Virus record (IMG/VR): IMGVR_UViG_2740892370_000019
Strand: one strand, 5' to 3'
Source of the DNA: a virus
Taxonomy: Duplodnaviria > Heunggongvirae > Uroviricota > Caudoviricetes
Length of the DNA: 9,625 nt
How positions within the stretch are numbered: position 1 is the stretch's first letter; each line of letters begins with the position of its first letter. The notes beneath the pieces were generated by a model. The model did not search any database. It had not been told where the DNA came from and saw only the letters and a program-made list of their open reading frames with translations. The position numbers and the translations under genes are program-made. Below, one piece after another: positions 795 to 9,625 of the stretch.

Positions 795-860
795 CAATAT
801 CCCAACTTGGTCAAGGTTTCAGGTTGGTGTGTTGGTGTTATCTTTCCCTTTTTATTCATG

Positions 861-985
861 GAGATAGAGCAAACAACAAAACCACCACCACCACCCTGAA
901 AAAGCTCATAAATAGCGAAAAACCGCGAGGTCGCCGCCCCGTAGCCTACCGGATCGCCGGAAAGGACCCGCCAGCCAGAACGGGC
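861..985 (-). other. Lambda-type cohesive-end site (cosQ-cosN region conserved, cosB side diverged)
   Basis: The reverse complement of 928..975 reads GCTGGCGGGTCCTTTCCGGCGATCCGGTAGGCTACG followed by GGGCGGCGACCT. This nearly matches the lambda right end GGGTCCTTTCCGGTGATCCGACAGGTTACG joined to the 12-nt cohesive end GGGCGGCGACCT (here at 928..939). The next 25 nt toward the TerS gene (CGCGGTTTTTCGCTATTTATGAG) also match the lambda left end, after which the sequence diverges and includes a (CCA)n/GGTGGTGGTGGTGG tract at 881..896. Confidence 0.8.
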
Positions 986-995
986 CCTAATTTCA

Positions 996-1379
996 TCAAC
1001 CAATCAACTTATAGCGACCATCCCGTGCATTGCGACGTACACGCTCAATCTTGAGGCATAGCGCCGCATCTGGCTTTTTTGGGACAGGTACGCGGCAATA
1101 TTCAGAAGCTCGAGGAATATTGTTTATCCAGTCGATCACTTCACTTAAATACCAGGCCTTACGCCCTTCCGTAACCTGTACGCGTTCGGGGAACTCTCCG
1201 CGAGCCTCAAGGTTTAGCAATGTGCGACGGCTAAGGGTAGTAAGTTCCATCACCTGATTCATATCAACAAGGCGTTCACTTAAACGCATTTTGTCAGCAA
1301 TAGCCTTTAATTCCTCTACTGCTGGATCCGGATACATCATTTCGGCAATTGGCTTAAGGTCATTGTAATGATTCTGCAT
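996..1379 (-). CDS. AlpA-family (phage excisionase/regulator-like) HTH protein with N- and C-terminal extensions, 127 aa
   Basis: The central segment LTTLSRRTLLNLEARGEFPERVQVTEGRKAWYLSEVIDWI fits the AlpA/Xis-type winged-helix signature (hydrophobic HTH, GxFP, R..W..SEV..W). The ATG at 1379 is preceded by AGGGGG at 6 nt and sits 11 nt after the stop of the upstream decoration gene, suggesting coupled expression. The stop abuts the cos site. Confidence 0.65.
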   Translation of the reverse strand: MQNHYNDLKPIAEMMYPDPAVEELKAIADKMRLSERLVDMNQVMELTTLSRRTLLNLEARGEFPERVQVTEGRKAWYLSEVIDWINNIPRASEYCRVPVPKKPDAALCLKIERVRRNARDGRYKLIG

Positions 1380-1390
1380 TGTATCCCCCT

Positions 1391-1732
1391 TTACACACGA
1401 GCCAGCGGCTGAACAGAAATACCTGAGCCAACAAACGCGGCAACCTTTGCCGACAGTTCTTTTACAGACTCAGGCCAGTTCAGAGCATCAACATTTAAAA
1501 CACCTGTCTTATAAACCTGTGCCTGTGTTTTTTTCGCTGTGTCGATTTGTACAGCGGAAACATAAACCGCTTTGCCTGCGCTCGTTCCATCCCATACCAC
1601 TAGCGCACCAGTTGCATCTTCCTGCATCAGTGGCGTAAACGCAGGTATTACCCCTTTATTGGCTGAAAATATCCCCAGCGTAGTAACCAGTGCTTCAGTG
1701 CCAGACATGAGTTCAGTGTAATGAGTAGCCAT
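1391..1732 (-). CDS. Head decoration protein, lambda gpD-like (113 aa)
   Basis: TPLMQEDATGALVVWDGTSAGKAVYVSAV...YKTGVLNVDALNWPES...AAFVGSGISV matches remembered lambda gpD ([29 protein letters not shown]...YKSGTFRYEDVLWPEA...AFAGTAISIV). Size matches gpD (about 110 aa). GGGGGAG Shine-Dalgarno before the ATG at 1732; 9 nt from the capsid gene stop. Confidence 0.85.
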   Translation of the reverse strand: MATHYTELMSGTEALVTTLGIFSANKGVIPAFTPLMQEDATGALVVWDGTSAGKAVYVSAVQIDTAKKTQAQVYKTGVLNVDALNWPESVKELSAKVAAFVGSGISVQPLARV

Positions 1733-1741
1733 TGCTCCCCC

Positions 1742-2788
1742 TTAGCCAATGCGAACGGTAACAAAACGATTGATGCGGGCCGGTATTGGCTGTGGTGCTG
1801 AATGTGTCTGCACATATTCAATAGCCGGATCACCAGGCACAATATAGTTTTTCGGTGCAAGTTCGGCTTTAGTCAGCCCCATCCGGATTAGCTCCGGATC
1901 CTGAATACCGCCATAAGCGACAATCCCCTGAAGAGCCGTATTGCCAAGCACCATCAAATCAGGATCAAGGAAATATTTTTCAGTTCCGTCCTCGTCGGTA
2001 TAACGCCCGCTGTAAACAACAATCGCAACATCGCCCATATACCCTTTAAAACTCACCGAATCACCAAGGTCTTTAAGGGCCGTTTCCAGTTCGGAATTAG
2101 AACCACGACGAGTATCCAGAGCCTCTTTTATCGCCCTGAATGAACGGTATTTCTTCCATACATTACCGCCCATAATGATAATATTAGTGACGCCCTCACT
2201 AAATTCTGCGTAGCTCTCAATATCATCATTTGGATCAAAAGCTTCTTTATCCTTACCTGACCACTCAGCACCGCCAGACTGAGTGATGATATTTTGTGGT
2301 TTAATATTCCAGTCCAGCTCATAACGTTCAATACCATCGCCCTCAATGATATTTTTCCCCGTTGTGATTGCCTGAACGGCAAGCCATTCAATACGTGCAC
2401 GAATAGCTTTAGCCTGATTTACAATCGCCTGTTTAACTTTAATATTACGCGCTCCAAAAGCATTGTATTGCTCAGGTGATACACCAGCAGGGCGCACAGC
2501 TAACTTATTTGGATCAATGCTGCTTTTCGGTTTCATATAGCCAGGGCGAATTGTTTTTGATTCGTATCCCTCATCTCGTGAAACTTTACTGCCCACCATA
2601 GGAGAGCAAAACGCCGCGATCGGGATATTTGGATCGTCGATCGTATCAAGAATAATTTCTCTCGATTCAAACATTACCGAGCGAGTGAAAAACAAACTGG
2701 TAAACAACGCATTTAATTTTTTTTGCACATCTTCAGCATTAGCCACCTGCACAAGCTGTGTAGGCGAATATAAGTCAACCATACTCAT
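1742..2788 (-). CDS. Major capsid protein, lambda gpE-like (about 347 aa)
   Basis: Long collinear similarity to remembered lambda gpE: N-terminus MSMVDLYSPTQLVQVANAE versus MSMYTTAQLLAANEQ; core NIITQSGGAEWSGKDKEAFDPNDDIESYAEFSEGVTNIII...FRAIKEALDTRRGSNSELETALKDLGDSVSFKGYMGDVAIVVYSGRY versus lambda NITQSGGTEWSKRDKSTYDPTDDIEAYALNASGVVNIIV...FKAVKEKLDTRRGSNSELETAVKDLGKAVSYKGMYGDVAIVVYSGQY. The track ORF (to 2869) is over-extended upstream; the true start is the ATG at 2788 (MSM...) or at 2782, the latter having AAAGAGG at ideal spacing. Confidence 0.9.
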   Translation of the reverse strand: MSMVDLYSPTQLVQVANAEDVQKKLNALFTSLFFTRSVMFESREIILDTIDDPNIPIAAFCSPMVGSKVSRDEGYESKTIRPGYMKPKSSIDPNKLAVRPAGVSPEQYNAFGARNIKVKQAIVNQAKAIRARIEWLAVQAITTGKNIIEGDGIERYELDWNIKPQNIITQSGGAEWSGKDKEAFDPNDDIESYAEFSEGVTNIIIMGGNVWKKYRSFRAIKEALDTRRGSNSELETALKDLGDSVSFKGYMGDVAIVVYSGRYTDEDGTEKYFLDPDLMVLGNTALQGIVAYGGIQDPELIRMGLTKAELAPKNYIVPGDPAIEYVQTHSAPQPIPARINRFVTVRIG

Positions 2789-2953
2789 CCTCTTTACATT
2801 CATTACAAATAATTGTGAATATATTCTATTACCGATGTCTGCTATGCGAATACATGCAACCAAGTGCAATGTTGTATAAAATATGCCGTGACAACTTCAG
2901 TGCTGATAATTCGTGTTAATGTATTTACTTCCTTTGGTCGGGATTTATGTAGC

Positions 2954-2999: not shown

Positions 3000-3422
3000 T
3001 TAAAACGGTATATTATCGCCGTACGGATCATCATTCCCCGACTGTTGTTTTGCCCTGTTCAGTGCGTCAGTGGCCTGCCCCTGCTGGCCTTTTTTGCCGC
3101 CCGGTCGCGCTGTTCGCGCACTGATCACGCTGTCTGCGATAACCTGCCAGCCCTGCCGCGTTTCGCCGTTCTGGCCTGTCCACTGGCTTACCTGCATGTT
3201 ACCCGCCACGCTCACCAGTTCGCCTTTGTGGTGTTTTGCCAGTGCGTCGGCCTGTCTGCCAAACGCCAGGACGGATAACCACATCATCGCCGTTCCGTCA
3301 TCTGCCTGGCTGCACGGAAGGGGGACCGCCATACTAGCCATCGCCATTTGTGTACCCTTGCTGGTGGTCTTTAACTGCGGGTCAGCCACCAGCCGTCCGT
3401 AAGCCGCTATCTGTGCTGTCAT
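3000..3422 (-). CDS. ssb: Single-stranded DNA-binding protein (SSB-like, OB-fold, 140 aa)
   Basis: OB-fold region (GRLVADPQLKTT..., WLSVLAFGRQADALAKHHKGELVSVAGNMQVSQWTGQNGETRQGWQVIADSV) aligns with remembered E. coli SSB ([50 protein letters not shown]). Gly/Gln-rich linker and acidic C-terminal tip ...NDDPYGDNIPF resemble the SSB ...DDDIPF tail. The start overlaps the stop of the upstream 80-aa gene (ATGA). Confidence 0.75.
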   Translation of the reverse strand: MTAQIAAYGRLVADPQLKTTSKGTQMAMASMAVPLPCSQADDGTAMMWLSVLAFGRQADALAKHHKGELVSVAGNMQVSQWTGQNGETRQGWQVIADSVISARTARPGGKKGQQGQATDALNRAKQQSGNDDPYGDNIPF

Positions 3423-3701: not shown

Positions 3702-4024
3702 GCGGGTTATGCGGGTTAGCGGGTTAGCGGGTTATCTTCGCTTGCTAAGTATTTTTTATTCCTTAATATCAATACATTACAAAATTAACTGTTTACTGTT
3801 TAGCCGTGGCGTAACCCGCAAAATGCTCAAAATAACCCGCAAACGGGGTTTTTTCTGCGGGTTACGCGTGGCTGTTTGCTGTCACTTCCTGTTATTCATC
3901 TGCGGGTTATAATCGCACTTTTGCGGGTTATAACTGCCGTTTTGCGGGTTACGTGCGAGTTATTGATTTCCTTTTTATTCATGCAGTTAATGCACTTATA
4001 CACAGAGTAACCCGCATAACCCGC
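3702..4024. repeat. Iteron array and AT-rich region, putative replication origin
   Basis: Twelve copies of the 8-bp motif GCGGGTTA or its complement TAACCCGC: four tandem copies at 3702..3734; complement copies at 3812..3819, 3833..3840, 4008..4015, 4017..4024; direct copies at 3857..3864, 3902..3909, 3923..3930, 3944..3951, several extended to TTTTGCGGGTTA. They flank an AT-rich stretch at about 3735..3800, directly downstream of the primase-like gene. Confidence 0.7.
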
Positions 4025-4047
4025 AACTTTTCACCTCACACAGGGGG

Positions 4048-6171
4048 TTAATCTTCTGCCTCAGGCTGGAACATCAGCACGTAAAAAACATGCTGCTTCC
4101 CCCCAATTTTGCCGAGAGCCTTTTTCTTGTAACGGCGATCGTTACCCGCTTCCAGCATTCCGGCAGCACTCAACGCGCGGGCAAAGTGGGACGGGTTAAA
4201 TCCCTGTGCGATCTCCCCCTCAAACACATGAGGAAACGTGTAAAAACGGAACTCATCATCTTCATTTCTGATACTCCCCTTTCTGTATCCGGCAAGGTCT
4301 TTAATCGGTAAATCACGTTCATCACTGTTTGGGTAAGGAAGGTATCGACTGAACCCGAACGACGACAAAAACGCCTCAGCCTGTTCAACCATCTGTTTAA
4401 ATTCCCTGTTACCCGTGCCGAACTCCTTCACCCAGGCATTAAAGTTATGCTGTATTGCGTCCCGGCATTCCTGCGCGGCCCAGCCAGTTACATGACCGGA
4501 AAGCACAAGCGCGGCCTCCAGTATGGCGAAACGCTCACCCACGCGGTGGACCTGCTCGCCGTAGCTCTCCGGTATCAGGTTGCGCCACCGTTCGCGGCAT
4601 TCCCTTACCGTATCCTTTGCCTCCTGCTGGTGGCCTGCCAGCCATTTAACCCACTCACGACCCGCTGCCCCGTGATTTTCTGTCCAGGCATCCTTTAACG
4701 CGTCTGCGTGCGCCTTTCCGGTGCTGTATTCGTGAAAGTGCGTGGCTTTTTCCATCGGAACGTTAAGCAGGCGGACAAGCTGCCCCGCTTTGACTTTTAT
4801 CCCCTCCGTTTTGAGGAATGTCTCAACGTCCATTTCTCCGGTGCTGATTGCCACCGTGCGCCAGTGTTTTATCTCCCGGTTGCCGCCGTCCTTCGCCCCC
4901 TGTAATTTCCCGGAACCGTTAAACAACGTATAGGCTGACGTGGACACCTCCCGCGCGTTTCCGGCCTGGCCTATTTCATCCAGGGGTAACAGCCCGTCGT
5001 TGTGCGCCTCTGCCTCGTTAGCGATACCTAACGCTGTGCCGTACCAGGTCAGCCGTTGTGCGTCCGGCTCTCCCCATAAACTTGATGCGATGTTCTGCGT
5101 GGTGGTTTTCCCTGCCGATGACTGTTCGAAAAGATGTACCCCGAAGCCGTCAGCACCAACAAGGCCAATCAAAGGTGCTGCCAGTGACGTGGCAACACCC
5201 AGCATCATGGACGGATTGCCACCAGCCAGCCGCGCCACGCAGTCGCGCCAGCCCTCCGCCGTACCCGCAACCGAATAGCCATTAACAGCGGCACTTTTTC
5301 CGGTAAACAGGATCGGTTTTTCAGAATCACCAATGATTGAGCCGTCCGGCATGATATACGCGCCAAAATGCCAGCCCGTTGTTGTGCTTAGCTGCCATTC
5401 CTCATGGCTTCCGCTTAACTGCATCCAGTCAGCCAGGATAGCCCTGTATTTGCCGTTTGTTGTCACGTTCAGCCCGTGATCTTTAAGCAACCGCCAGCCG
5501 TCACGGTCGCCAATGCCACCACACGGGATCGCCATTGTGATGACTTCATGGTTTGCTAATTTTTTCCAGCGCATCACGCGGTAATGCTCTTTACCGATCG
5601 TCCCCGTTCCCAGTAGTTCAAGCGGAGAACATAACCACGTCTCAGGCCGGATAATTTCGCCTGACTGCTTATCCACTTTGGGCGTTACCCAGAAAACACC
5701 ATCGACGCGACTTTCAACGCGGGGCTTTAATTCATCATCCTGATAGCATGGCTCTTTTTTCTTTACAGGCAGTTCAACTACCTTTTTCTTTTCCGCCTGC
5801 TCTGCCCGTTCACGTTCCAGATATTCGCGCCAGTTCTCCCGTTTCTGGCTGTGCATTCCTTCAGGGTAATAATCAGCATCCCTGACACCTGCCGCTGCCA
5901 GTTTCTGCCCGATGGTATTAACAAGCCCCGGACGCAATAACCCCGCCTGGTAGAGACGCACGCGATAGCGTCCGTCCGGTACGATTTGCAGGTTGTCCAG
6001 TTCGGCAAGTTGTTGCTCTCCAAGCCAGACAGGTGGCACGTTATCGCCAGCCAGTCGCCCGTCCTGTTCCTGCCACTGCTTCGCATGTGCCCACGCATCA
6101 CTACCCGCAAAAATGATGACTTCCGTCATTTTGTCACGCGGCTGGTGTTTTAAATTTGGCGCTTTTTTCAT
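4048..6171 (-). CDS. Replication protein, primase/helicase-like (P4 alpha / D5-type family assignment tentative), about 707 aa
   Basis: Large ORF with a central P-loop-like motif FEQSSAGKTT. It is the last gene of an operon beginning near the operator region and lies next to the iteron array, the layout expected for a satellite pri-rep gene. The track start at 6186 is a GTG; the ATG at 6171 (MKKAPNL...) has GGAGAG at about 8 nt and overlaps the stop of the upstream gene. Family membership was not verified. Confidence 0.75.
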   Translation of the reverse strand: MKKAPNLKHQPRDKMTEVIIFAGSDAWAHAKQWQEQDGRLAGDNVPPVWLGEQQLAELDNLQIVPDGRYRVRLYQAGLLRPGLVNTIGQKLAAAGVRDADYYPEGMHSQKRENWREYLERERAEQAEKKKVVELPVKKKEPCYQDDELKPRVESRVDGVFWVTPKVDKQSGEIIRPETWLCSPLELLGTGTIGKEHYRVMRWKKLANHEVITMAIPCGGIGDRDGWRLLKDHGLNVTTNGKYRAILADWMQLSGSHEEWQLSTTTGWHFGAYIMPDGSIIGDSEKPILFTGKSAAVNGYSVAGTAEGWRDCVARLAGGNPSMMLGVATSLAAPLIGLVGADGFGVHLFEQSSAGKTTTQNIASSLWGEPDAQRLTWYGTALGIANEAEAHNDGLLPLDEIGQAGNAREVSTSAYTLFNGSGKLQGAKDGGNREIKHWRTVAISTGEMDVETFLKTEGIKVKAGQLVRLLNVPMEKATHFHEYSTGKAHADALKDAWTENHGAAGREWVKWLAGHQQEAKDTVRECRERWRNLIPESYGEQVHRVGERFAILEAALVLSGHVTGWAAQECRDAIQHNFNAWVKEFGTGNREFKQMVEQAEAFLSSFGFSRYLPYPNSDERDLPIKDLAGYRKGSIRNEDDEFRFYTFPHVFEGEIAQGFNPSHFARALSAAGMLEAGNDRRYKKKALGKIGGKQHVFYVLMFQPEAED

Positions 6172-6473: not shown

Positions 6474-6794
6474 TTATCCCCGATTTGAATCAGTATTCGC
6501 TTTCTTTATGGCATTTAATGCATTTGTGGCATTTTCAATGGTGCACCGTAGCGAAATATCAAAATGCCCAAGCATTGCCAGTAACAAACCAATATTACCC
6601 ATATCAATGCGCATGGCCTTTTCGTCATAGTCCTCATTTTCTGACGCATGCCACATCAGGCTACCAATTGACGCAACAGCCATTGATATATTGTCAGTAG
6701 CCCCATCCGCAGCGGAATAAACCTTTTTAGCAATATCATGCTCACAGTTAAAATGCGGATTAATCAGGTACTGGTAATTTGACATATCAGGCAT
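6474..6794 (-). CDS. Hypothetical protein (106 aa), AT-rich
   Basis: The ATG at 6794 overlaps the stop of the upstream small ORF (ATGCCTGA overlap); compact operon arrangement. No family recognised. Confidence 0.6.
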   Translation of the reverse strand: MPDMSNYQYLINPHFNCEHDIAKKVYSAADGATDNISMAVASIGSLMWHASENEDYDEKAMRIDMGNIGLLLAMLGHFDISLRCTIENATNALNAIKKANTDSNRG

Positions 6795-6990
6795 GGAACA
6801 CCCCCTGACGAATACGGGCGGCGAATACCATCACGCAGCCAGCCGGGGATTGCTGGCGTGCTTCCTGTTCGCTGCTGGCCTCAATGGTAATCACGCGCGG
6901 TTGTGCCGTACTCAGGGCGATAAAACGCCAGATGTATTTATTCAGGTTGTGCGAGTCCCGCCCTTGCGGGTGTGTGGTATGATTTAGCAT
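6787..6990 (-). CDS. Hypothetical small protein (67 aa), first gene of the replication operon
   Basis: ATG at 6990 preceded by GAGGT at 5 nt; the stop overlaps the next gene start. The track shows this only as the C-terminal end of an implausible 367-aa read-through ORF. GC-rich, and an opposite-strand ORF (6793..6987) exists, so coding status is uncertain. Confidence 0.35.
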   Translation of the reverse strand: MLNHTTHPQGRDSHNLNKYIWRFIALSTAQPRVITIEASSEQEARQQSPAGCVMVFAARIRQGVFHA

Positions 6991-7087
6991 AGCTACCTCG
7001 ATAATCTTTCTATCGTTGGTGGTTAGAAGCCCGGTTAGTGTTAGCGCACTGCCGGGTTTCGTCGTTTCTGCACCTTGCATCAACAAG

Positions 7088-7160
7088 GTGTTAAACACCA
7101 ATTTAAGCCTAGGTGTTAAACACGTCAAGTGTTGAACACTTATTTTTTTTCCTGCATACT
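7088..7160. promoter_or_regulatory. Three palindromic operators with an overlapping candidate promoter for the plus-strand regulator gene
   Basis: GTGTTAAACAC at 7088..7098 and 7113..7123, and GTGTTGAACAC at 7129..7139; each has half-sites GTGTT/AACAC forming an inverted repeat. Centre spacings are about 25 and 16 bp. TTGAAC (7132..7137) lies inside the third operator, then a 17-bp spacer and CATACT (7155..7160), about 30 bp before the ATG at 7190. Confidence 0.55.
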
Positions 7161-7189
7161 GCATTTGTTTTTTGTAAGGGGTACACAAC

Positions 7190-7369
7190 ATGGCGACAAA
7201 AGCAGTAAACGCAAAATCACAAACAGTTGCGGCAAGGGTTCCGCATGAAGTTATGAACAATGTTGAGGCGGTAAAAATGCCTGGTGAAAGTACAGGGCAG
7301 TTTGTAACAGCAGCATTAAAGCGAGAAGTTGAATACCGCCAGCGTCGCAAGGCCAAAGAGCAGGAGTAA
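7190..7369 (+). CDS. Small ribbon-helix-helix-like DNA-binding protein (59 aa), candidate repressor
   Basis: Not in the ORF track (under 60 aa). MATKAVNAKSQTVAARVPHEVMNNVEAVKMPGESTGQFVTAALKREVEYRQRRKAKEQE: a TVAARVP beta-strand followed by two short helices fits the RHH (CopG/Arc-like) pattern. AAGGGG Shine-Dalgarno about 9 nt upstream; sits directly downstream of the operator triplet. Confidence 0.5.
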   Translation: MATKAVNAKSQTVAARVPHEVMNNVEAVKMPGESTGQFVTAALKREVEYRQRRKAKEQE

Positions 7370-7426
7370 CCATCACCAGCGCCGTGGTGCGGTGAACTGT
7401 GGCGCACAGGGTTACAGGTATCTACG

Positions 7427-7624
7427 ATGACTGACAAATCATTAAAGAAATTATCCTCATCCAGGGAAAAACAACGCAAAAACGCGGTAAGCGAACAAGA
7501 ACAGGAAAGATTCGCACCATGTGCGTTTGTCCTTGAGAAGTTCCTTAAAGAGTACAGGCGCACAAAAATGGGATCGCATACCTGGAAAACATCGCAGCAT
7601 GGCGATGCTAAAGAGCAGGAATAG
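7427..7624 (+). CDS. Hypothetical small basic protein (65 aa)
   Basis: ATG with AGG at about 7 nt; charged, Lys/Arg/Glu-rich composition. Lies between the RHH-like gene and the plus-strand terminator. An overlapping opposite-strand ORF (7457..7645) looks like low-complexity hydrophobic read-through. Confidence 0.3.
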   Translation: MTDKSLKKLSSSREKQRKNAVSEQEQERFAPCAFVLEKFLKEYRRTKMGSHTWKTSQHGDAKEQE

Positions 7625-7712
7625 CCCACCAGCAAGCCAGCACACTGATCACATTGCCCACCAGCCAGCAAATCGCTATGATGTTCGGGCTTATGTTTAG
7701 TGTTTTCCCATT

Positions 7713-7740
7713 GGCGACCGCCCCCGGTCGCCTTTGTTTT
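7713..7740 (+). terminator. Rho-independent terminator
   Basis: Perfect 8-bp GC-rich stem GGCGACCG (7713..7720) / CGGTCGCC (7725..7732) with loop CCCC, followed by TTTGTTTT (7733..7740). Placed where the plus-strand small genes converge on alpA. Confidence 0.65.
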
Positions 7741-7759
7741 ATGTGTCATATGCTCCCCT

Positions 7760-7969
7760 TTACGCTGCCTTTCCTGAATTAATGCGATCCCGGCTTTTAA
7801 CCCATTCCATAACCTCAGACTTAACCCAGCCAACCGAACGACCTCCAAGACTGATACGGGAGGGAAAGCGGCCTTGTTTTTCCATCTCATAACGAGTTGT
7901 ACGGCAAACGCCTGTTAGCTCTCTGCATTCTTTTTCACGGATTACACGATCTTCATTTATTTCGCGCAT
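7760..7969 (-). CDS. alpA: AlpA-family prophage regulatory protein (69 aa from the ATG at 7969; possible longer form from GTG at 8053)
   Basis: CRELTGVCRTTRYEMEKQGRFPSRISLGGRSVGWVKSEVMEWV matches the AlpA signature (HTH, G.FP, R.VGW..SEV.EW). Adjacent to and co-oriented with the integrase, as in CP4-57/P4-like elements. The track N-terminus starts at a GTG. Confidence 0.8.
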   Translation of the reverse strand: MREINEDRVIREKECRELTGVCRTTRYEMEKQGRFPSRISLGGRSVGWVKSEVMEWVKSRDRINSGKAA

Positions 7970-8386: not shown

Positions 8387-9625
8387 TCAAGAATTTTGGG
8401 TGTAAATTCGCGGGGTCATAACAACGATTTTTTCATCATTGTTCTGGAGAAGCTCGAGACGGTCTACCCATAGATTAAGAGCATCACGTTTTGCATCAAG
8501 ATAGCGGGAGTGGTTATAGACTCGTTGCATCCCTGGCATCTGGTGGGCTGTAAGCTGCTCGACAATATGCGGATCCACGCCTAAATCGTTCAGCATGGTT
8601 GTAAATGTGTGCCGGATATCGTGTAACGTCCAGGGGGCTTGATTAATTCGTCTGTGCGCTGTTCTTCCGTACTCTGCTACCGAAGATTGTCCTTTCAGTT
8701 CACCAAGCAATAAGCCCGTGTGTCTGTTCTGCTCCACCAGCTGCGTGATGAACGGCAAAATGCTTTCCGGTATTGGCCTGAATATGGCGACCTTCGTTTT
8801 GCTGTGCTCCTTCGGTACCGTCCAGAGCATTTCTTTAAAATCCCACTCCTGCACCTCAGAGCGCCTTAGCTCGGTGGTACGGCATCCGAAAACAATCAGG
8901 AGGCGAATTAGGGCGCTGTAGTACGGCGGGAATATTTTGTCATCCAGGGCGCGGAGTAATTCCCCAAGCTCCTTGTTTGTTAGTACGCGCTCGCTCACTT
9001 CTGCTTTTTTTCCCACATCACCGACAACCATATCATCAAGAACGTTGCTGATTGCGTATCGTCGTTTTCGGCAGTACTTAAGCGCCTGTTTGCATACCTG
9101 TAGCAAAAATCCGGCAGATACTGGGCTTCGCTTTGCCATCTGGTCAAAACATGCCAACCAGTGCCGTAGCTCGCATTTTTCCAACGGCAAAGCGCCAATC
9201 TGGCTGATTATGTGTTTATTGATCCGGCTTTTCAGTGATTCGTAGTCAGTGCGCTTTTCCTTTGCATACGATTCAAGCCAGTAAGTGAGCGCTTCCTTAA
9301 CTGTCACGGGGGCTAACGCATCCTGTACAGCACGATTAAGCTCATAGCGCGGATTTTTCCCCTCAGCCAGCCAGGCGCGACACTGTGCTGCTATTTCCCT
9401 GGCTGCTTTCAGGCTCAGATCGGGATAATTGCCCAGTCTCAGACGTTCCGGTGATACCTGCCTACCAGTTCCGGCCCTGTAAGTGAAATACCAGGTTAAC
9501 AGGCCGCTGGTGGAATGTCTTACGCTAAGATTGCCACCGTCATTAAAAAAGGCGTTTTTTGTGGTTGGTGATCCGCTTAATTTTCGTAAAAGAGTGTCGC
9601 TAAGTCTATGAATTGCGCTGCTCAT
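8387..9625 (-). CDS. int: Tyrosine site-specific integrase, P4-type (412 aa)
   Basis: Full-length ORF with the start at the window edge. The C-terminal catalytic region contains LHDIRHTFTT and ...GMQRVYNHSRYLD (His-x-x-Arg and the catalytic Tyr context). Size and the adjacent alpA are typical of P4-like integrase modules. Confidence 0.9.
   Translation of the reverse strand: MSSAIHRLSDTLLRKLSGSPTTKNAFFNDGGNLSVRHSTSGLLTWYFTYRAGTGRQVSPERLRLGNYPDLSLKAAREIAAQCRAWLAEGKNPRYELNRAVQDALAPVTVKEALTYWLESYAKEKRTDYESLKSRINKHIISQIGALPLEKCELRHWLACFDQMAKRSPVSAGFLLQVCKQALKYCRKRRYAISNVLDDMVVGDVGKKAEVSERVLTNKELGELLRALDDKIFPPYYSALIRLLIVFGCRTTELRRSEVQEWDFKEMLWTVPKEHSKTKVAIFRPIPESILPFITQLVEQNRHTGLLLGELKGQSSVAEYGRTAHRRINQAPWTLHDIRHTFTTMLNDLGVDPHIVEQLTAHQMPGMQRVYNHSRYLDAKRDALNLWVDRLELLQNNDEKIVVMTPRIYTQNS

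Follow-up and report, generated by a model that had tools for sequence, protein, structure and literature searches.

A coat and decoration gene pair and its satellite relatives

We examined two neighbouring genes that encode a major capsid protein of the lambda gpE type (hereafter E) and a head decoration protein of the lambda gpD type (D) in a 9,625-nt stretch of DNA catalogued as a tailed phage (IMG/VR record IMGVR_UViG_2740892370_000019), which as a whole is referred to here as the window. Judged by gene content and flanking sequence, the window is part of a classical Gram-negative phage-inducible chromosomal island (PICI) of the EcCICFT073 type in Escherichia coli, and comparison with relatives places its E and D in an old lineage that is specific to such satellites. 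The features of the window are collected in Table 1.

The E gene occupies an open reading frame (ORF) that spans 1742-2869 on the minus strand. Its product was recognised by the Pfam family Phage_cap_E (E=1.1e-41 over residues 14-345; 143 bits against a cut-off of 22.9) and by PHROG 29 'major head protein' (E=1.9e-89). It is 42% identical to lambda gpE across the full length and 54% identical to c1499 of EcCICFT073, the crystal structure of which (PDB 3BQW) was also its best structural match. An AlphaFold model with a predicted template modelling (TM) score of 0.81 superposed on lambda gpE at TM-scores of 0.84-0.88 and on 3BQW at 0.89, and predicts a complete HK97 fold with a long spine helix, an E-loop and both the A and P domains. 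A preliminary description of this DNA had started the gene at 2788; the gene itself was confirmed, and the ATG at 2782 is the more likely start because it is the one called in RefSeq, yields 346 amino acids and is preceded by AAGAGG about 7 nt upstream. A low-GC gap of 217 nt separates E from ssb, the next gene upstream.

The product of the D gene matched the Pfam family HDPD (PF02924; E=2.3e-15, 57.2 bits against a cut-off of 29.1), PHROG 49 'head decoration' (E=1.2e-26) and the structures of phage 21 SHP and lambda gpD (E=3e-16 to 1e-12), and over 78 residues it shares 40% identity with lambda gpD. D follows E after 9 nt and is itself followed after 11 nt by a gene for an AlpA-like protein, with a Shine-Dalgarno sequence before each of the three genes. 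The preliminary description had raised inactivating truncations of E and D as a possibility; there are none, since neither gene has an internal stop and both products are full-length family matches. E and D share a reading frame and are set apart by the stop codon and 9 nt (window 1733-1744), and one 463-aa database protein, P0005, is an E-D fusion carrying both Pfam domains. We considered such a read-through fusion for the window and rejected it. Relatives vary in their spacing (9, 11 or 12 nt), and in EcCICFT073 the two genes are in different frames, which makes programmed read-through unlikely. The AlpA-like gene likewise stands directly after D in the Serratia and Salmonella satellites, and its product had no similarity to c1501 of EcCICFT073.

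Table 1. Features of the window, with positions counted from its first nucleotide.
Feature	Position	Strand	Basis or detail
gpE-like major capsid protein gene, 346 aa	1742..2782	-	Pfam PF03864, PHROG 29
gpD-like head decoration protein gene, 113 aa	1391..1732	-	Pfam PF02924, PHROG 49
Second AlpA-like helix-turn-helix protein gene, 127 aa, directly downstream of D	996..1379	-	Pfam Phage_AlpA E=1.4e-8; PHROG 2790 E=2e-48
Weak sigma-70-like promoter candidate upstream of E	2823..2850	-	9/12 consensus matches
cos site: cosQ-like region, cosN (939-928) and ~33 nt beyond	895..970	-	cosN exact GGGCGGCGACCT
Presumed satellite-specific cosB between cosN and TerS start	798..894	-	direct repeat ACACCAAC-ACACCAAC
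Nu1-type small terminase subunit (TerS) gene, 180 aa	252..794	-	Pfam Phage_Nu1 E=1e-22 (C-terminal half); PHROG 57 E=6e-52 (full length)
ssb, single-strand DNA-binding protein gene, replication zone	3000..3422	-	Pfam SSB E=2e-15
Iteron arrays, presumed replication origin downstream of primase gene	3702..4025	.	GCGGGTTA x4, 21-nt unit x2.4, TAACCCGCA x2
DUF927 primase/helicase gene (pri-rep)	4048..6171	-	Pfam DUF927 E=2e-47; PHROG 1139 'DNA primase' E=1e-180
alpA, PICI activator/excisionase-type regulator gene	7760..7969	-	Pfam Phage_AlpA E=1.6e-17; RefSeq annotation
Tyrosine integrase gene	8387..9625	-	Pfam Phage_integrase and Arm-DNA-bind_3

A database search with the window E returned two separate groups, one at 49-99% identity and one of phage gpE-type proteins at no more than 44%. 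When 39 non-redundant satellite E proteins were compared with 28 phage E proteins in a tree from which one chimera was excluded, the two sets formed separate clades with 100/100 bootstrap support, with identities of 46-93% within the satellite group and 36-48% between the groups. A collection of 50,697 phage records held no E more than 41.5% identical to that of the window. The preliminary description had asked whether E and D would cluster with satellite or with helper proteins; both fell with satellite rather than phage proteins, the bootstrap figure being that for E. Every context of the satellite group that we examined (four further E. coli sites, Serratia, Salmonella, Edwardsiella and Lelliottia) had int, alpA and a primase or helicase gene and then E followed by D. 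This E-D allele was present in 395 of the 5426 complete E. coli genomes at a coverage of at least 80%, and more distant E-then-D pairs were found in many more, including O157:H7.

The two genes are under strong purifying selection, with ratios of nonsynonymous to synonymous substitution (dN/dS) among close pairs of 0.06-0.13 for E and 0.06-0.30 for D. Such constraint means that some selected function must exist. The pairwise divergences of E and D were correlated, with r=0.92 overall and 0.75 once near-identical pairs were left out. Divergence from the phage proteins included the surfaces at which the partners meet. In lambda, two adjacent gpE subunits, one through its E-loop and the other through its N-arm, pair with the N-terminal strand of gpD (PMC5701804). 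An invariant motif specific to the satellite E proteins, FCSPMVGS.V.RD.GYE, maps to the E-loop, and the satellite D proteins have in common a short N-terminus with the consensus PY.EL.AGT and, at the C-terminus, an SVQPL tail, and they are without the DPAHTAT motif of the phage proteins. Divergence of both the E-loop and the D N-terminus would be expected if satellite D is matched to satellite E and not to the E of the helper. Read together, these comparisons indicate that satellite E and D form an old satellite-specific lineage, co-diverging and constrained, and that the pair is neither a recent capture nor a relic. The satellite E clade, the constant E-then-D order across genera, the purifying selection and the co-divergence of E and D, as they emerge from these alignments, are what is new in this analysis.

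Several of the relatives carry arrangements of their own. The Edwardsiella satellite (L011 765-12681) interrupts a prophage portal gene. That prophage has a D-then-E pair itself, and the two E proteins, of satellite and prophage, share only 46% identity. The Salmonella satellite (L014 4292-13978), with E then D, lies between the tail-fibre and tail-tube genes of a prophage with a P2-like tail. In the Lelliottia PICI a gpC/Nu3-type S49 protease-scaffold gene, 50% identical to lambda C, stands directly after D (L012 11409-12752) and a head-closure-like gene (Phage_HCP) adjoins alpA; in its set of head genes this element stands between the classical and the capsid-forming PICIs. One 4.4-kb metagenome scaffold encodes a protein, P0046 (L016 2801-3829), whose first ~235 residues are 100% lambda gpE and whose remainder is E of the window type; lambda B-C-D precede the hybrid gene, and a satellite D and an AlpA-like gene follow it. 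We rejected this protein as evidence of exchange between phage and satellite, the join falling at the most conserved segment of E: it is probably an assembly chimera, with some room left for a real recombinant. The 19.9-kb 'phage' records that had the best bit score for E were likewise considered as satellites and rejected, being partial myoviruses with normal D-then-E head modules.

The island and its packaging genes

Several complete E. coli chromosomes carry a segment 99.9% identical to the window, and in one of them, NZ_CP027219, the complete element lies between clpS/clpA and yljB/cspD. Comparison of the element-bearing site with the empty site of K-12 gave an insert of 10.8 kb with a duplicated att core of 22 nt, located at about 10996 and 21800 of the locus designated L001. 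Some 985 bp of the element lie to the left of the window, with clpS and clpA beyond, and the sole ORF there encodes 94 amino acids and shares 71% identity with the final ORF of EcCICFT073. On the right the element continues for about 190 bp before yljB and cspD, with attR about 170 nt past the edge of the window. The preliminary description had suggested that further head genes might lie beyond the left edge, which the content of those 985 bp refutes.

All substantial genes of the window are on the minus strand, with only two small ORFs on the plus strand. In the direction of transcription the order is int, alpA, an icd-like gene, a 106-aa ORF, a DUF4222 gene, the primase gene, the iterons, an 80-aa ORF, ssb, E, D, the AlpA-like gene, cos and TerS. 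This is the organisation of a classical Gram-negative PICI: a terminal integrase gene with adjoining alpA, most genes in one direction, an own primase gene with iterons directly downstream, and a small chromosomal island bounded by att sites. To these its sequence adds an apparent apparatus for hijacking packaging, consisting of lambda-type cosQ and cosN, a putative private cosB and a Nu1-type TerS. No gene for a portal, protease, scaffold, connector or large terminase subunit (TerL) was found anywhere in the complete 10.8-kb element, and the annotation and ORF lists of the full element contain no lysis genes, no tail genes and no complete head module. The ORFs scanned gave no Pfam or PHROG match to the P4-like hallmarks Sid, Psu, Delta and alpha-type primase. 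The preliminary description had taken the element for a satellite whose own E and D homologs run E then D (D then E in lambda), within an operon that includes an AlpA-like gene and cos, and had recognised no portal, protease or scaffold gene in the window. These points hold, the genes forming a tightly packed block, and the absence of those three genes extends to the rest of the element.

The packaging region combines a cos site close to that of lambda with a terminase subunit that is only partly so. Over the 76 nt that surround cosN, identity to lambda (-31 to +45) is 88%, and the 12-nt cohesive end within them is an exact match; no other cosN occurs in the whole element. Similarity to lambda ends in the adjoining segment, 798..894, from which the lambda R3, R2 and R1 sites are absent. 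The TerS is full length and 37% identical to lambda Nu1; its closest phage counterpart is N15 gp1, at 47.5% identity. Its C-terminal half, which corresponds to the TerL-binding part of Nu1, is 41% identical to Nu1, and its satellite-specific N-terminal DNA-binding domain is 29% identical, with a linker shorter by 13 residues. Among PICIs whose E proteins share only 54% identity, conservation of this N-terminal domain reaches 93-98%. There was no detectable similarity between the window TerS and RppA of EcCICFT073. The most economical reading of these sequences is that the island TerS brings the helper large terminase to the island's own cos. Such a strategy would be the cos-phage counterpart of the TerS strategy of the pathogenicity islands found in Staphylococcus aureus (SaPIs) and an alternative to the Rpp strategy of EcCICFT073.

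The same region varies among related PICIs, in which the gene for TerS or Rpp lies between two inverted lambda-type cosN sites, called cos1 and cos2 in EcCICFT073. Such pairs lie at 17559 and 18309 in L004, at 7320 and 8198 in L008 and at 7252 and 8130 in L009; the window element and L006 have a single cosN. In a further E. coli PICI (L015 12138-12722) the TerS gene is inverted and looks mosaic, with an N-terminal domain like that of phage Nu1 and a satellite-like C-terminal half that is 65% identical to that of the window.

Some smaller features were recorded along the element. Our first candidate for att, a repeat beginning ATTAACTACACC at L001 11085 and 21657, was rejected because the empty K-12 site places the core elsewhere. 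The repeats ATTAACTACACCATT(A/G)ACTACACC at L001 11085-11141 and 21657-21713, inside the element near both ends and distinct from the att core, may be arm-type binding sites of the integrase. A GGTCAT hexanucleotide microsatellite (L001 11971-12000) adjoins the left edge of the window. It lies just upstream of where the last ORF is annotated to start, and a longer alternative of that ORF would read it as a Met-Thr repeat. The 8-nt iteron GCGGGTTA (window 3702-3734; L001 15711-15742) differs by one copy between the window and NZ_CP027219, which offsets later coordinates by 8 nt between the two. A 367-aa ORF on the minus strand (6787-7890), absent from RefSeq, is probably not a gene; it overlaps both the icd-like gene and a pair of small genes on the plus strand (YlcI/YnfO-like, 7190-7369; hypothetical, 7427-7624). 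A tRNA scan and an Rfam scan of the window gave no match.

Possible roles of E and D

The reading we favour, with fair confidence, is that this block is the late (morphogenesis and packaging) module of an EcCICFT073-type PICI and that E and D act in it as structural proteins. A lambdoid helper with a lambda-type terminase would induce the island; the island's Nu1-type TerS would bind the private cosB and recruit helper TerL to the lambda-like cosN and cosQ, so that island concatemers are packaged. E and D, made from the same gene block, would meanwhile act structurally, E entering shells built with the helper portal, protease/scaffold and connectors, and the cognate D cementing the satellite-E shells through the co-diverged surface of E-loop and N-arm. 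We regard a structural role for the pair as likely from its sequence, because there is sense in retaining a matched decoration protein only where E assembles into an expanded lattice, and because one satellite, that of Lelliottia, adds a protease-scaffold gene beside D. Candidate benefits are extra or satellite-private shells, or altered properties of the shell. As a matter of arithmetic rather than evidence, four island copies (43.2 kb) would fill a head of lambda size.

A number of observations weigh against this proposal. Most of them come from published work on EcCICFT073, the one relative tested. Deletion of c1499 or c1500 had no phenotype there: transfer by a resident helper was unchanged, lambda plating was not restored and interference was unaffected. 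With c1499 replaced by cat, transfer still reached up to 1e6 per ml. When the genes downstream of ori were expressed singly, only c1503 (RppA) inhibited lambda, and deletion of c1503 restored lambda plating. The EcCICFT073 DNA packaged with lambda was of phage size. Two further points arise from the window itself. Satellite E is only 41% identical to the helper coat, which calls its use of the helper scaffold and portal into question, and the promoter upstream of E is a weak consensus match only; a scan for promoters and terminators around E found promoter-like matches no commoner than in shuffled sequence. The constructs behind the published negatives deserve attention. The marked EcCICFT073 islands were of two kinds, c1501::tetA, with the marker inserted into the gene that comes directly after D, and c1499::cat, and the helper was mostly lambda, which is not the native one. 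These marker sites mean that the late module was never intact in the marked constructs described, a caveat that we did not find discussed in the sections of this work that were consulted. A search of the literature since 2020 found nothing on the function of PICI coat homologs.

If the favoured structural role took a stronger form, the E-D pair would build satellite-private shells on helper portal and scaffold. These would be either smaller, holding two copies (21.6 kb), or of normal size and preferentially filled by satellite TerS with helper TerL, and the reported lack of phenotype would then be an artefact of markers inside the block and of a non-native helper. We think this improbable. Were it true, these widespread PICIs would constitute a partial capsid-forming class between pure pirates and capsid-forming PICIs.

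A related explanation is redirection of capsid size, in which satellite E, stabilised by satellite D, replaces helper gpE or mixes with it. The resulting shells would be smaller (T=4, for example), with room for one or two copies of the island but not for the helper genome of 40-50 kb, an effect like that of Ccm for SaPIbov5. Missense mutants in lambda gene E alone reportedly give small heads, a finding ascribed to Katsura in 1983. Two island copies make 21.6 kb, near the ~21 kb that a lambda-type T=4 shell would hold if capacity scales as about T^1.5, which is arithmetic only. Small capsids are also made by PmCI172, which has a gene for a coat homolog, and in SaPIbov5 the coat homolog Ccm becomes part of small capsids (PMC6893505). 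On the other side, EcCICFT073 with lambda packaged only phage-sized DNA, loss of c1499 or c1500 was without effect on transfer or interference, and a review by Dokland gives normal-size capsids for this island; size redirection is contradicted for EcCICFT073 with lambda. Nor are small heads needed, given that four copies fit a normal lambda head. For the window element we still grant the explanation a low but not negligible probability, because its E sub-clade, its packaging gene and its natural helper differ and because the tested constructs were disrupted in the module.

Slightly less probable again is a non-structural role, in which E and D would stay out of the island's particles and would instead be regulators, or else decoys, sensors or poisons directed at defence systems or at lambdoid phages other than the helper. 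The missing structural phenotype in EcCICFT073 fits this explanation, and PICIs often carry anti-phage functions; the selection acting on the pair shows that some function exists. Keeping a cognate D, however, would have a point only with an expanded E lattice; gpD binds at the trimer sites of three capsomers. The whole HK97 fold is conserved, including the regions of the E-loop and spine helix, and one satellite has a protease/scaffold gene beside D. Moreover, c1499 or c1500 expressed alone did not inhibit lambda.

If E and D were instead the remnant of a decaying lambdoid prophage, or helper genes recently captured and without a function of their own, one would expect them to resemble phage genes in sequence and setting. 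Homology to the lambda head genes points that way, and Mageeney et al. propose that PICI late genes were captured from helper prophages. The setting is nevertheless a clean att-bounded 10.8-kb island between housekeeping genes, with the PICI core genes present and with E before D rather than D before E. The preliminary description had also allowed for a degraded lambdoid prophage, which is contradicted by the lack of a contiguous head set and of tail and lysis genes. The sequences agree: no phage E exceeded 41.5% identity among the 50,697 records, the satellite clade is monophyletic with dN/dS of about 0.1, and even the Edwardsiella satellite shares only 46% identity in E with the prophage around it. 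We consider this explanation very improbable. That the window is a fragment of a capsid-forming PICI whose portal, protease, connector and TerL genes lie outside it can be dismissed with near certainty, its only recommendation being the presence of a coat gene and TerS, and the complete element refuting it with one 94-aa ORF in the 985 bp on the left and ~190 bp on the right. Neither a capsid-forming PICI nor a decayed prophage fits the element.

Comparison with known systems

The combination of coat and decoration genes in this PICI family has been known since 2018, when Fillol-Salom described a 'putative capsid protein (c1499)' and a 'head decoration protein (c1500)' in EcCICFT073 (PMC6092414), and Mageeney et al. 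in 2023 found a major capsid gene in 21 of the 29 reference Gram-negative PICIs, where it is the commonest late gene (PMC10111431). The premise of the preliminary description that classical PICIs carry no coat gene is thereby overturned. The standing question is what leads the majority of Gram-negative PICIs to keep a coat and decoration pair of their own. Our analysis narrows it by characterising the pair as an old, satellite-specific, co-evolving and strongly constrained lineage and by pointing out that the published negative tests used islands disrupted inside this same module.

The head genes D and E of lambda belong to the same families and folds as those of the window, at 40-42% identity. 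In the window the order is reversed, C/Nu3, B, W, FI and FII are not adjacent, E falls in a distinct clade, and the D N-terminus and E-loop are divergent. A lambdoid head module would have the order Nu1-A-W-B-C/Nu3-D-E-FI-FII and an E close to phage E, and the window element does not match it. The satellite P4 resembles the window element in supplying a capsid-decorating protein (Psu) and in altering the use of the helper's head; unlike it, P4 has no coat homolog, and Sid and Psu are unrelated to gpE and gpD. The helper-embedded PICIs of Mageeney et al. (such as 11capE) are likewise organised in four zones, the Late zone containing a coat gene, whereas the window element occupies a chromosomal intergenic site and not a helper gene. 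Capsid-forming PICIs of the EcCIEDL933 family have the same int, alpA and rep backbone and their own coat and TerS genes, to which they add portal, protease, head-tail connector, HNH and TerL genes and so make complete small capsids; the window element has none of these additional genes.

Ccm of SaPIbov5 is, like E, a satellite-encoded paralog of the HK97-fold coat of the helper in an island packaged from cos. It turns prolate capsids into small isometric ones and interferes strongly with the helper, whereas no such phenotype is known for the coat homologs of E. coli PICIs, the tests of EcCICFT073 with lambda being negative; Ccm also has no partner decoration protein and is unrelated in sequence to the window E. 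The closest of the known systems is EcCICFT073 itself, the prototype of the classical Gram-negative PICIs, from E. coli CFT073 (Fillol-Salom 2018, 2019), which shares with the window element the overall order int, alpA, icd-like, DUF4222, primase, ori, ssb, E, D, small gene and cos, followed by a packaging-specificity gene (Rpp or TerS) and a conserved ORF of 93-94 amino acids, with a lambda-type cosN in both. The two elements differ in that E and D are each 54% identical between them, which puts the window element in another sub-clade, and in that the window element has a full Nu1-type TerS in place of RppA, an AlpA-like protein in place of c1501, one cos site rather than two, a DUF927 rather than a D5-type primase, and an integration site at clpS/cspD rather than roxA/phoQ. 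Set against these systems, the window amounts to the correct annotation of a known architecture and not to a new kind of system.

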